Shown here piece by piece: positions 33,562 through 39,976 of a stretch of 64,000 nucleotides of DNA (its first letter is position 1; each line of letters starts with the position of its first letter). The DNA is from Podarcis cretensis (lineage: Eukaryota). The notes beneath the pieces were generated by a model. It made no database searches, had not been told where the DNA came from, and saw nothing but the letters and a program-made list of their open reading frames with translations. Where the stretch lies: contig OX638152.1 of NCBI GenBank assembly GCA_951804945.1, forward strand, positions 35,588,001 through 35,652,000, written 5' to 3'. A program made the position numbers and the translations under genes.

Positions 33562-33803
33562 CAGTGGTACCTCAGGTTGCATATGCTTCAGGTTACATAC
33601 GCGTCAGGTTACAGACTCCACTAACCCAGAAATAGTGCTTCAGGTTAAGAACTTTGCTTCAGGATGAGAACAGAAATCGTGCTCCGGCGGCGCAGCGGCA
33701 GCAGGAGGCCCCATTAGCTAAAGTGGTGCTTCAGGTTAAGAAGAGTTTCAGGTTAAGAACAGACTTCCAGAACGAATTAAGTACTTAACCCGAGGTACCA
33801 CTG
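33562..33803. mobile_element. Tigger-like MITE
   Basis: TIRs cagtggtacctc / gaggtaccactg, TA TSD. Confidence 0.88.
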
Positions 33804-34597
33804 TATCAATTTCCCCAGCTCTCTAGCACACACATCAGACATTTTCATCCATTCAAACCTACTGGCTCCAATCCAGCGCTCATGAATATTTTCCCAGAGG
33901 TACAGAACTGCTGATGGAAATGTAGGCAGATCTGGCCTCCCTGGGGCAGAACATCCTGCTTGGTAACTGCTCTGGAATCTAGAGAGCTAAGTTGGAGATA
34001 GATTTGTGATATCCACCAACTCAAAATGAGTCAGATCCCCTAAGCCATGCAGGTGCCTTCAACGGCTGAACTTTTAAGAAAGGGCTCGTGTTTCTTGCGC
34101 TGTTTATCTGAGCCCTGTGACGTGGAATGCCTTTATGGTTGCCTGCATGTCACTGTCCGGTTGAGAGAAGGGAACAAAGCACCCCAGGACATCATTGCTG
34201 CCGTACTGAGATTGGGAATGACCGTCAGTACGGCTGGGCCCGAGTCTTGTGGTACAGGAACTGGGCCCATCCACACCTGTCCCTCTTCCTGTTTTGGTGG
34301 TAACTTCATAGTGCACTGGTCTTTCCTGCCATGCTCTGAGGGAACTGGTTCCATTATTTCTCCTGCCACATCCTCATCCCCAGTCCTGGCTGGCTATCTG
34401 TCAGCTTCTGTACAAGGCTTCTCAGTGTTATGAACCCTTAAAGGAGAGAGGGGGACTACTTAGATGAAAAGCCCAGTGGGTCGTAGAGATGTGCTGAATT
34501 TTATACAGAAGTGTAAAGTTATGAATGAGAGAGCACCATATATCGCAAAGTACTCCAAAGCAACACTTGACCACACTACACGTAGGTGGCTTTAGAT

Positions 34598-34733
34598 CAG
34601 TGTTTCCCAACCTTGAGTCTCTAGCTGCTTTTGAACTACAGTTCTCACCATCCCTGACCACTGGTCTTGCTAGCTAGGCGTGATGGGAGTTGTGGTCCAA
34701 AAACAGCTGGAAACCCAAGGTTGGGAAACACTG
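34598..34733. mobile_element. hAT MITE
   Basis: TIRs cagtgtttcccaaccttg / caaggttgggaaacactg; 8-bp TSD ctttagat. Confidence 0.9.
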
Positions 34734-35189
34734 CTTTAGATAGATAAGACAGCTAGATAGAGGCAATTGCCCTGAAGAAAATGATCATAACTTTCTTTTA
34801 TCTCCTGTTGGGCCAGGTTTTGTCACTGCCAAGGTCAGAGTTACTTTATTTTAGTTTCAAAAATCAAACGGAATATTTACAGGATACCACTTCTTGCTCT
34901 GCAAGCATTTTCTCAAAACCAGTAAATGCACTCGCTTCTCCTTTTTTTTGCTCACTCTGACCAGCCTATTGACCATGTTGACAACCTTGGCTGGAGAGGA
35001 GAGACATTCCTAAAGACCCAGTGGATCCTTGCTGGCACGCACACACACACACACACACACGCCCGGCCTAGGAAAGTTACCATTCCCACAGAAAGCAAAA
35101 GTCCATCCAAAATGGAAAGCGAAAGGACTCCGGTTTTCATAAAGAACTTCGTGCAGGTCTCTAAAAACAAACAGATCTTTTGACTGCCT

Positions 35190-35790
35190 TTAACGACCGG
35201 TGTGCAGCGCTATTTGCATCGAGGACAACAACAAAAGCACCCCTGGAGCCTTGACTAGCAGTCCTCTCCGTCGTCAGGGCACCGGTCCGGGTTTTCCGGC
35301 AACTCAGCGGGGTGGGGAACGTCCCGGTGACCGGCTCGCCCAGCGAGGGAATTTCCTCCATGCCGAAAAAGTCCGAGCTGCAACTCTCGTCCCTCCACCC
35401 CGACTTCCTCTCTCACGTCACGACATTCCCCTTTCACCCCTCCCCCTTTTAACCATTGCAACACCAACCAGGCAACTCAGGACTGAATCACAGGCGATAA
35501 GGATATCGGGGCGTGCGGGGGGTGGGGGGGGGTGGGGGTGGGGAGGAAAGAATCCCCGAAGACCTCGAGCTTCGTTGTGAAACTTTCCCTTCTGGCTGGA
35601 GAGGCAGCGCGTGGCGGTGACGGGTTTGGGGCGGGGGGAGCTTCTGCCGGCAGAAATTTTAAGCCTCCGAGGGAAATGTTCGCTTTGCCATAGAGACGGA
35701 GCGCATAAGCAGCTGAGGACCCGTTAAGCAGCCGGGAAAACCATCTAGCTCGTTCCCTGAAACCTAGCTTCACTCCCGAGACATGAAGGT
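35190..35790 (+). promoter_or_regulatory. NFKBIZ: kB-rich CpG island, probable distal NFKBIZ promoter and non-coding first exon (candidate donor AAG|GTATAT after 35788)
   Basis: GGGAATTTCC 35347-35356, GGGGAACGTCCC 35314-35325, GGGTTTTCC 35289-35297, GAAACTTTCCC 35579-35589, CRE-like TCACGTCA 35413-35420; about 22 kb upstream of the ATG. Confidence 0.65.
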
Positions 35791-36496: not shown

Positions 36497-36715
36497 TGGC
36501 TGGCTGCACATGCGCACCTGCTGGCTCCAAATAGAATTAGTTGTGCTTAACTGCCAGTAAAAATCATTAGATGAGTTGGTCCTGACTGACAAGTCGTCTT
36601 GAACTGACAGGAACTTCAGTGTCAGTCAATGGAGCTGGATTAGGGTGTCTAAGTATGAATGAAATAAAAAAATTCCTTCCAGTAGCACCTTAAAGACCAA
36701 CTAAGTTAGTTCTTG

Positions 36716-36753
36716 GTATGAGCTTTCGTGTGCATGCACACTTCTTCAGATAC
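36716..36753 (-). ncRNA. minimal type I hammerhead ribozyme motif (inverted copy)
   Basis: exact reverse complement of the core at 36765-36802; 4-bp stem I. Confidence 0.7.
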
Positions 36754-36763
36754 GACTTCTTCT

Positions 36764-36803
36764 GGTATCTGAAGAAGTGTGCATGCACACGAAAGCTCAT
36801 ACC
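36764..36803 (+). ncRNA. minimal type I hammerhead ribozyme motif
   Basis: GGUAU-CUGAAGA-A-GUGUGCAUGCACAC-GAAA-GC-UC|AUACC: stem I, conserved core, palindromic stem II, loopless stem III; predicted cleavage after 36798. Confidence 0.75.
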
Positions 36804-38532
36804 AAGAACTAACTTAGTTGGTCTTTAAGGTGCTACTGGAAGGAATTTTTTTATTTTGTTTTGACTATGGCAGACCAACACAGCTACCTATCTGTAAGTA
36901 TGAATGGTAATGATGGACAGTTGAGATGGCAAGGTAGTGTGGACGAGCAGCTATTTCTGGCTTAGAGCAAACCCAACATGGAGTGTGGTACTTTTAAAGC
37001 AAACATGTTTATTGTGGCACAAGCTTTTGTATTCTAGAGTCCATATTATCAAATCAGACTCAGGAAGTGTTATCCTAAACTGGCAGGTGTGTGTGTTTGA
37101 AATAAATCTCTATCTGTAAATAAACACACACACACACATACACGCAAGAAGTGAGGTCAGGAGGAAATGAATGCAACAAACAAGGCTCTGATAATCATGT
37201 GTAAAGCTTAAATGTATGTAAAATATAAATGATTACAGTGACCACCCTAAATCTACGTTGATAACACAAACATCCACGTAATAACCTACCAGCTAATTTA
37301 CAGGGCTCAGAAGACACTTTCTGTATGAACTTGTTTGCTATCTTGGAGCCTCTGTTTCAGAGAATTCTGGGAACTGTTCTGCTGGCTCTTCAGGAAGCTG
37401 GTACCCTCCAGATGTTTTGTACTGCAGCTTCCATCAGGCAAGCAAAGGCTGTGCCGCACCATAACTCTATTAGCACCCCAGGATAGCAACAGGGGAGAAA
37501 AGTCTATCTGCTGCACATGGGCAAGCCCACCACTGGACCAGTTAATGGGTTGAGGGCCCATTTCCATCTCTGGGTTCCTCTGAGCCATCCTTAATGGAGA
37601 GAGATACTGGAGCTTGGGGAAGTAGGTGCTATTTTCCTCCTGCATCCTAGTCCAGACAATGCTTAATGCTGAGAGGGTCCTGGAGAAAGATGACTTTGCT
37701 TCTGCTGACACCAACATAACCAACTTGCCATTCCTGTTTTGCTTGGAGAGAGACAAACCAGGAAGCTTGAGCTCATACTTGCTTCCCTGTAGTAAGAATC
37801 CGTATGGCATGGGGTGGAGTGGCAAAATCAGAGAGTTCTGAGTTTTGTTGCAGCTGCAGAGCTGGCCTCGGCACCATGGGGTGAGTTATAGAGTTGATAG
37901 AAATTTGGACAGAATATAGATAGAGCTGATAGAAATTTGGTGGCCTCAGTTGCCATCAGCAAGTTGACATGCTTTGCTGTCTCTCTAAAGAAAGGGTCTG
38001 TTTTTCTGTGTGCTTTCTTTTATATATGTCTTATGAATATGAATGAGAGGGTTACTCTATGTCTTTTGCTTTCAATTTCTTTTTTGCTTCTCCTTCTTTT
38101 ACCAAACCAATAAACATATTCAGAACACGAAAAATCCTCTTTACTGTACAAAGGGAGAAATCAACTTAATATGTCAGAAGTTTTGAGAAATATTAACAAA
38201 GTTAAAATTTTCCAGTTTTGAAAACTACTTTGTGTTTAACTTTAGTTATTCCAGAAGAAAATAATTAACTGTTTATGGGCTTTTGTATTACCATTCTGAC
38301 CAGCATTATATTCAACAAAGGATTATTGAATGTTTGAACACAGGTAAAATGCATAGTTGATTTTATTCTCAGCTTTATATTACTTCAGCAGAAACGATGT
38401 GCTGCATTTCCTGCTGAGATTCATTTCATTCCTCTGATCCTAAACTGAGTATTCCCACTGCATTTCTGTGGGGTTTAAAAAGAGCAGTGCATTAACTACA
38501 GTGTAGGTTTATCCAGGAACAAAGTCAAACAA

Positions 38533-38611: not shown

Positions 38612-39180
38612 TACCTAACTTATTTTCTGCTGTTTGATGAGTTCAGTTCAGTTTTAAGAAATGAATTCAAGATAATAGTTCAGTTTCAAGAAATGAATTC
38701 CTGCTTACATTTAATTCTCGAACTTCTTTGCCGCACGCTTTAGAATCAAGAAGAGAAAAGTGAAAATCAGTATTGAAAATCATAATGTGCCTGCTTTATT
38801 TCATACACATTTTCTTGTCTTTAGCTAATTTTTTGAAATTGGAGATATCATATGTCATGTCACCAGCTAGTCAATGCTTTGTTTGGAAAAAGGGCCAGCT
38901 AAATACCTTTGGACACCTTAGAAACTGAGGACACGTCAACAGTGTTTTTGTGTTGTTTTCCCCTCCATCATCTTGTACTGAGAGAAAGATTGCAGGGGAA
39001 AGGGTATATGTTATGTATGGTTTTGTTTTGCTTAATTTTTTACATTTATATCCAGTCTTTCTTCCAAAGAGCTCAAGGTCGTTGACAAGGTGTCTCACTC
39101 CCCACCACACACCACTATACTGTACCACACTGGTTGTAGTAGGGAAGTAGGGAAAAAGTGAGTGATTATCTTATCCATTT

Positions 39181-39333
39181 ACAGATAGGTAGCCGTGTTG
39201 GTCTGCCATAGTCAAAACAAAAAAAATTCCTTCCAGTAGCACCTTAAAGACCAACTAAGTTAGTTCTTGGTATGAGCTTTCGTGTGCATGCACACTTCTT
39301 CAGATACACATCTTAGATCAGATACAGATACAG
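39181..39333 (-). mobile_element. Penelope-like element remnant, same family as 36662-36894
   Basis: near-identical to the reverse complement of 36765-36894; 12-bp direct repeat atcttatccatt at 39168-39179 and 39334-39345. Confidence 0.85.
39270..39307 (-). ncRNA. minimal type I hammerhead ribozyme motif (third intact copy)
   Basis: identical core GUAU-CUGAAGAA-GUGUGCAUGCACAC-GAAAGCUC-AUAC. Confidence 0.7.
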
Positions 39334-39976
39334 ATCTTATCCATTGTTTGTGTTTGTTTGGGTCCTTTGGTTGTACCAGCCCTATATTTGTGATTGACAA
39401 TTGAGTTATTTGTTCCGCATGCTGGTTATGTCCTGCTTTTAGATTGTAGCAGAATTGTGGTGTTGGTTGTGTTGTGCTATGTGGGGATGTGCCTGATATC
39501 AAGCATATTGTTATGAGGTTGTGGGTTTTTTTGGAGGGGGGTCAGACTCCCCTAAATCTCTGGATTCAGTAAAGCATTAGAATTTAAGCATACCTCTGAA
39601 TTCTTGGTGTCAAAAATAACACAGACCAGCTTCTTCATGAGGTCATTACTTAGTAATGGCCAAGTTGCTGACCTAACAAATGGCAGGATGATGGGCCGTT
39701 AAGCTAGATGGCTCTTGGAAGCAGCCCCTGCCTGAGCTCAGAGGGAGATAGTTGGCAGAGACAAGGAGAGTTTAGTTTTAGGACTGAAGTTTGCCTGATG
39801 TGGGCTGGAGGAAAATTGTTTTGGTCTGTTAAACACAGCAGGATGGAGAACTGGGAGGGGTGGGGATAGTCACAACACAATGTGGGCTGACGGTTCGACT
39901 CCAACATGGCAGCCATGCGACAAACAGGACCCACACAGAGTGTAATGATAGGAACCTCTCTATACTAGGCTCAGGT

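Follow-up and report, generated by a model that had tools for sequence, protein, structure and literature searches.

EN+ Penelope-like elements (PLEs) encode RT together with a GIY-YIG domain at the C-terminus in one ORF, form partial tandems with a hammerhead in the pseudo-LTR, and are associated with a head-to-head inverted, 5'-truncated copy, a one-sided tail of 30-40 bp and a short target duplication (PMC8557442, PMC3846280, PMC2377424). In the parts of these accounts available to us, the inverted structure is either left without a defined origin or ascribed to self-priming, and the tandem and inverted arrangement is reviewed as the product of undefined steps (PMC8557442). The hammerheads of metazoan PLEs are of a minimal type I (Cervera and De la Pena 2014, PMC4209133), and opposite-strand pairs 100-700 bp apart were reported in Schistosoma and motifs in turtle and snakes in the same work. 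For the Poseidon element PAc of Anolis carolinensis, the protein, modelled as a dimer, cuts and extends both target strands on uncut RNA, whereby two internal RNA start sites bound the tail (Frangieh et al., PMC11167929); the available sections of that report do not discuss inverted insertions. Two further systems are close in part. During L1 twin priming, both sides of a staggered break prime cDNA, the internal joint is made by end joining, target duplications measure 12-18 bp and an extra G marks capped 5' ends (PMC11702581). Non-LTR retrozymes, found in non-avian, non-mammalian vertebrates, are small non-coding hammerhead repeats derived from PLE pseudo-LTRs (bioRxiv 10.64898/2026.07.22.740005).

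The window analysed here, a stretch of 64,000 nucleotides from Podarcis cretensis (contig OX638152.1, positions 35,588,001 to 35,652,000), holds a hairpin left by a young Penelope-like retrotransposon as a two-armed insertion; at least 980 such insertions with two hammerheads set back to back are present in the genome. Positions refer to the window, and element positions are numbered from q1, the first base of hammerhead helix I at window 36765, with q0, q-1 and so on denoting the upstream bases of longer copies. The perfect 92-bp stem (36662-36753 against 36765-36856), the 11-nt loop and the flanking 12-bp direct repeat described in the initial annotation were all recovered, the arms being exact reverse complements up to the point where pairing ends, and the hairpin region folded at -184.3 kcal/mol (z -25.7), a value reached by none of 200 shuffles. 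What had been missed is that the arms are unequal, the right arm running 41 nt further into the element 'tail' and first codons for a total insertion of 233 bp. Its final 3 nt (TAA) are common to the target duplication, a 3-nt overlap, and the last two loop bases are TG, a dinucleotide frequent before q1. Contigs of three other samples begin inside the tail and continue into the right flank, and the hairpin is probably carried by these samples too.

Table 1. Features at and around the hairpin locus (window positions)
Feature	Position	Strand	Details
Presumed distal NFKBIZ promoter and exon 1	35347..35790	+	kB-type site 35347; donor-like GT 35789
Left target-site duplication, 12 bp	36650..36661	+	family duplications mostly 12-15 bp
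Short arm, q1-q92	36662..36753	-	outer end in the 'short' class (q79-103)
Minimal hammerhead core of short arm	36720..36749	-	motif scan; predicted cut after 36720
Junction (loop)	36754..36764	.	second copy of q7-q14, antisense, over 8 nt
Long arm, q1-q133	36765..36897	+	outer end in the 'long' class (q122-139)
Minimal type I hammerhead of long arm	36765..36802	+	helix I 36765-68/36799-802; core 36769-75; extra A 36776; helix II palindrome 36777-90; GAAA 36791-94; AGCU palindrome 36794-97
Unpaired part of long arm	36857..36897	+	'tail' plus codons 1-10 of the element's ORF (ATG 36867)
Right target-site duplication, 12 bp	36895..36906	+	
One-armed family insertion	39168..39345	-	arm 39179-39309; 12-bp duplications 39168-79 and 39334-45

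The Penelope-like origin proposed at first was borne out, the arms corresponding to the pseudo-LTR and ORF-start segment of an element with an intact RT and GIY-YIG ORF. In the full-length copies L159-L162 this ORF is open over 910 aa from the ATG equivalent to that of the window copy, which encodes the first 10 codons only, and Pfam recognises RVT_1 (E 9e-12) and GIY-YIG (at the curated cut-off). L159 is a 3,011-bp tandem of 99.97% identity, as expected of a pseudo-LTR, and L160-L163 carry inverted arms with the inverted truncated copy and one-sided tail, the two arms of L160, of roughly 2.9 and 3.3 kb, standing head to head. Upstream, longer copies continue into a promoter-like stretch and then into the GIY-YIG C-terminus. 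The single RT and C-terminal GIY-YIG ORF, the pseudo-LTR tandem, the inverted copy, the tail and the duplication of EN+ PLEs are all present in the family. A CX4CxxC motif upstream of EN in the translation points to the Neptune or Nematis clade, since a CX2-5CxxC linker is a trait of these two clades and is absent in Penelope/Poseidon; Poseidon, our first guess, was rejected on this motif. PAc differs, being a Penelope/Poseidon element whose ORF starts in helix II, whereas the ATG here lies 68 nt after the cut (PMC11167929). The nearest named proteins are unclassified ORFs of turtles (65-70%) and of Zootoca vivipara (82% over part).

The family is abundant, with 10,554 exact genomic matches to one 24-mer and 980 pairs of back-to-back cores no more than 30 nt apart (control 0). 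With the long arm as query, 806 candidates were obtained, 40 of which were scored; nine of these, counting the window copy itself, showed no difference over 133 nt. A third family copy, overlooked in the initial annotation, lies 2.3 kb downstream of the hairpin on the minus strand, its inner junction being a run of repeated short pieces of element and target. As this insertion is absent from samples X1, X3 and X4, whose contigs join 39167 to 39334, the element is young and probably active.

It is scarcely credible that such hairpins represent a MITE, a non-autonomous family of hairpins that propagates itself, or an error of assembly. The small size and inverted repeats would suit the first two, as would a complex junction common to two loci in each of three pairs. 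A MITE would present equal TIRs, a fixed short duplication and uniform copies, whereas the ends here are unequal, the duplications vary from 9 to 18 bp and the arms are continuous with the RT ORF. The window junction, moreover, is a single occurrence genome-wide and the junction of locus L094 occurs only twice, counts on which we rejected the idea of hairpins spreading as a family of their own. The target duplication and the contigs of other samples speak against an artefact of assembly. Non-LTR retrozymes share the small, pseudo-LTR-derived hammerhead unit; they consist of at least two head-to-tail units with same-strand ribozymes (bioRxiv 10.64898/2026.07.22.740005), whereas the arms of the window locus stand head to head on opposite strands.

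A hammerhead in each arm, as initially annotated, was found by the motif CUGAAGA-A-helix II-GAAA-GC-UC, which begins at 36769 on the plus strand and at 36749 on the minus strand. Its assignment to the minimal type I also held, with the core CUGANGA/GAAA, a UH cut site, an extra base at 9-10.1, a G10.1-C11.1 pair, a 4-bp helix I and a palindromic loopless helix III, features set out for metazoan PLE hammerheads (PMC4209133), and we likewise place the predicted cleavage after C36798. The motif departs from those described there in that helix II is itself a 14-nt palindrome (in the monomer, 5 bp and a 4-nt loop), and from the Schistosoma pairs in that the cores lie 0-30 nt apart. A check against hammerhead models failed to recognise it: among 32 Rfam matches up to E 10 there was no hammerhead family, only sub-threshold matches to miRNA hairpins. 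The miss is likely due to the loopless helix III, which would fall outside hammerhead models; a miRNA identity was rejected, the matches being below threshold and reflecting the hairpin.

With arms on opposite strands, every transcript carries one sense and one antisense copy, as had been stated, and the 92-bp duplex also proposed is the likely RNA fold according to the folding calculations. The pairing probability of the ribozyme helices fell below 1e-18 in the full element, compared with 0.74-0.96 in a lone arm, and growing-chain folds likewise lent no support to cleavage during transcription. Since the antisense arm is always transcribed first in a head-to-head layout and the ribozyme helices are gone in the full fold, self-cleavage at the locus is unlikely, including the co-transcriptional route suggested in the initial annotation. 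The duplex would be expected to form in a host transcript and to keep the ribozyme from forming, and the hairpin is predicted to bury it in transcripts from either side. PLE hammerheads are said to cleave as dimers, a result attributed to Lunse et al. in 2017; the dimer envisaged for this locus does not hold for its two motifs, which cannot dimerise together because they lie on opposite strands. Dimer folding paired the two helix II palindromes without forming the AGCU helix III and so lends no support to an active dimer. Helix II (36777-36790) being a perfect 14-nt palindrome, two RNAs can pair via helix II and helix III. Some insertions, that at locus L055 among them, have their joint exactly at the centre of the helix II palindrome.

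Inverted truncated copies, one-sided tails and opposite-strand minimal hammerheads are already described, and the locus adds another example. Relative to the EN+ PLEs in the available sections of their descriptions (PMC8557442, PMC3846280, PMC2377424), what differs is the commonest product in the lizard, a minimal one with two arms of ~90-135 nt both stopping at helix I, of which there are about a thousand exact ones. The ends of the arms were sampled from the first 100 matches of the 24-mer on contig C1, that is, on one chromosome. Outer (3') ends were bimodal, 52 of 100 falling at q79-103 and 48 at q122-139 with none at q104-121, the lowest short-end values being underestimates because of a variable T tract. 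One short and one long end were found in 28 of 28 minus-then-plus neighbour pairs (a 29th, which joins two separate insertions, was excluded), in 25 of 26 back-to-back hairpin loci, four of which overlap the 28-pair set, and in all four long two-armed elements L160-L163, selected for their ORFs. The sole exception has both arms cut at q38-39. The long arm bears the tail and the short arm is without it, and the window insertion, with a short left end at q92 and a long right end at q133, fits the rule. Target duplications measured 9-18 bp with a mode of 12 and 65% AT (24 pairs, after exclusion of 5 complex, spurious or low-complexity ones) and reached at least 12 bp in 25 of 29 neighbour pairs. 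Target and element overlapped by a mean of 1.1 nt at the short end (n=22) and 1.4 nt at the long end (n=19), with a control of about 0.4.

The reading that we favour, and consider probable, is that both sides of one staggered cut prime RT on element RNA and that the two cDNAs are joined head to head. The short class (about q85-103) and the long class (about q122-139) would then mark two internal RT start sites, one per target strand, and these would be the sites that bound the 'tail' in the anole element; with one start site per strand, a short and a long end in every insertion would be expected. PAc, a Poseidon element and thus of another clade than the one to which its biochemistry is applied here, likewise shows two classes of ends, separated by about 35-40 nt and situated just within the region where the ORF starts (PMC11167929). 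As in L1 twin priming, both sides of the break would be extended, with duplications of similar length; the L1 cDNAs cover adjacent, nearly non-overlapping RNA (PMC11702581), whereas here both cover the same RNA, so that the product is a long inverted repeat. The broader proposition, that obligatory two-strand priming by a dimeric enzyme, with one cDNA from each internal site on opposite sides of the break, yields the inverted repeats and one-sided tail of PLEs at large, is advanced tentatively and at somewhat less than even confidence.

Self-priming, whereby an antisense RNA or cDNA folds back at a palindrome and is extended while endonuclease resolution of the ends leaves the tail on one side, has been proposed on an antisense template by Arkhipova et al. 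(PMC3846280), with the tail attributed to endonuclease resolution in PMC8557442. It agrees with the many joints in palindromic words, with the 17 non-majority variants common to both arms across the 28 pairs, and with the TG before q1, which would be a 2-nt snap-back on helix I. Self-priming of one cDNA, however, cannot extend the short arm beyond the 5' end of the long arm, yet the short arm goes further 5' in 14 of the 28 pairs (long arm further in 11, tie in 3), by 470 nt at locus L030. The short arm is therefore often not derived from the cDNA of the long arm, and simple copying of one arm from its partner does not account for either. Target overlap is above control at both outer ends, and in the anole work the tail is tied to two sites on sense RNA at which RT starts (PMC11167929). 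We regard self-priming as unlikely, less firmly so in its antisense-RNA version. The 5' extents of the two arms correlate within pairs (rho 0.53), and arm divergence is 0.97% within a pair against 1.49% between loci. The correlated extents and the shared variants suggest that both arms derive from one RNA template.

The inner (5') ends were sharply placed, 26 of 100 lying at q-2 to q1 and 35 at q-2 to q5, with only 2 at q31-39 around the ribozyme cut. Arms opening with a non-template base numbered 2,402 at q1 genome-wide, compared with 57 at the cut site q35 and 91 at the control position q46, the match being inexact in that the base excluded was T at q1 and C at q35 and q46. A further 3,557 arms continue upstream, T occupying q0 in 98 of the first 100, while the base before q1 in the first 100 stopping arms was G in 71, A in 21 and C in 8 (hand count). 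T precedes the extra G in 55 of 100 (hand count); the G also lengthens helix I, as cDNA snap-back would give, and it equals the partner arm's base in about 16 of 100. Automatic duplication searches on extra-G loci mostly failed, with a few one-armed cases readable. Upstream lie TATA-like words at q-32 and q-30, the q1 stop being 31 nt behind the latter, a CCAAT at q-86 and an acceptor-like word ending at q-1. Under two-strand priming, q1 would correspond to a capped 5' end, the RNA being uncut and its start lying ~30 nt behind a TATA-like box of the pseudo-LTR, extra G being the mark of capped ends in L1 insertions (PMC11702581), and the short arms would be run-off products akin to retroviral strong-stop DNA. 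With start sites just ~100-135 nt from such a capped start, most events would yield strong-stop-like run-off cDNAs set head to head. That the short arms are run-off cDNA from RNA starting at the ribozyme has, in our estimate, about even odds.

The same priming on both strands could instead be halted at q1, whether by a bound protein, at a splice acceptor or by the fold of the ribozyme, with the G coming from snap-back, a conceivable if doubtful variant. The acceptor-like word and the enrichment of T before the G are in keeping with it, as is the D. virilis element, in which an intron ends at helix I (PMC4209133). Transcription of that element begins about 120 nt upstream of its ribozyme from a TATA-less promoter (PMC4209133, PMC2377424), a point against a capped start at q1 in the lizard. 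Against these points, four spliced joins built on guessed donors occurred in none of the loci collected, and the RNA-read joints listed included no splice joint into q0. RT would also meet the fold from its 3' side, and halting after crossing it is not expected, whereas the TATA-like spacing suits a start at q-1/q1.

RNA of a related organism (four runs, 6,129 reads against the full-length unit) neither showed nor excluded a start at q1. Loose read ends at q1 (58, 59, 64 and 43 reads, with low agreement) occurred in all four runs, so that the break in the relative's copies falls on the same base. Neither at q1 nor at the cut did starts or ends of molecules pile up in the four runs, a weak test, as 67-85% of reads continued into unlike sequence, and this lack of a start pile-up leans towards a non-capped stop. 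The reads stemmed mostly from copies transcribed passively, and hardly any covered the 5' part of the ORF. Counted without matched DNA, A>G/T>C places numbered 67-84 per run, close to the 55-68 for C>T/G>A, and carry no information on editing. In runs X21 (7 reads) and X22 (12 reads), q191 was joined back to just before helix I (L159:2432 to 2239), a 194-nt unit holding the hammerhead, which may stem from a genomic tandem resembling a retrozyme, or from circular RNA, in the related organism.

Joints within the family display microhomology at palindromic words and re-copied pieces. Re-copied inserts at joints are a typical trace of end joining by polymerase theta; alternatively, the telomerase-related RT may have copied such pieces reiteratively. 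Under head-to-head joining, two identical cDNA tails would be united via microhomology at palindromic words, often after short pieces had been copied again, and the result would be the loop.

In the literature searched, which misses most subscription papers, neither the strict end rule nor the helix I stop nor a two-strand run-off model was found. The short-plus-long rule, the sharp q1 stop and the unused cut would make a concrete model of integration out of the two start sites found in vitro, and the same pattern argues against the hammerhead defining the template end, in line with PAc, for which the ribozyme cut is not used as the template end (PMC11167929). Taken alone, the locus is ordinary. 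Of more weight is the pattern of the family, which provides a testable model for a step of Penelope transposition that is still open. If the model is true, such events have seeded the genome with perfect ribozyme hairpins, about a thousand in number, comparable in a reptile to the duplexes of inverted Alus. In L159-L162 the 910-aa ORFs are intact and near-identical and offer good material for the biochemistry of a Neptune-type element, in which the model is directly testable.

NFKBIZ was confirmed downstream of the hairpin by an ankyrin exon matching PDB 9bor (E 9e-31), and an NXPE-family gene (Neurexophilin PF06312) lies upstream of it. The position given for the distal NFKBIZ promoter and exon 1 (Table 1) is plausible, as it combines a kB-type site, a donor-like GT and the spacing of the two human NFKBIZ promoters, which are ~20 kb apart (PMC6176600). 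The hairpin is predicted to be a passenger in the presumed first NFKBIZ intron. Two MITE-like elements with TIRs (33564-33806 and 34593-34738) lie upstream of the presumed promoter, and at 38156, 17 letters present in all four DNA runs are absent from the window.

There is no support for a special link with NFKBIZ, given 980 such pairs genome-wide. The chance of finding one within the 21.8-kb interval is about 0.014 for a back-to-back pair and about 0.15 for any match to the 24-mer. With 980 pairs and 10,554 matches, the position needs no special cause, some pairs being bound to adjoin notable genes, and the placement is probably due to chance. That the element acts on NFKBIZ pre-mRNA as a regulatory ribozyme or dsRNA is very unlikely in our judgement. 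Its motif is intact, its position is likely intronic, the hairpin is probably present in three other samples, and a 92-bp duplex could serve as an ADAR substrate; such a duplex, nuclear, is also the RNA form to be expected at this locus from the folding predictions. Set against this are the 980 equivalents, the youth of the copy, identical over 133 nt to at least 8 other loci, the predicted burial of the ribozyme fold, and the absence of the sole nearby same-strand partner from three samples. A lone minimal hammerhead, in addition, showed no cleavage in vitro (PMC4209133), and the anole hammerhead required its own protein (PMC11167929).

Finally, an identical complex junction is found within each of three pairs of loci, L094/L108 (G000:C1:4513967, 5381193), L065/L067 (C1:1697470, 1741950) and L126/L127 (C1:21440935, 21509141). 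The members of a pair lie 44-870 kb apart with different flanks, and in all three pairs the two members carry the long and the short end on opposite sides of the junction, possibly as a result of repair or conversion of the fragile hairpin centre from a nearby copy.
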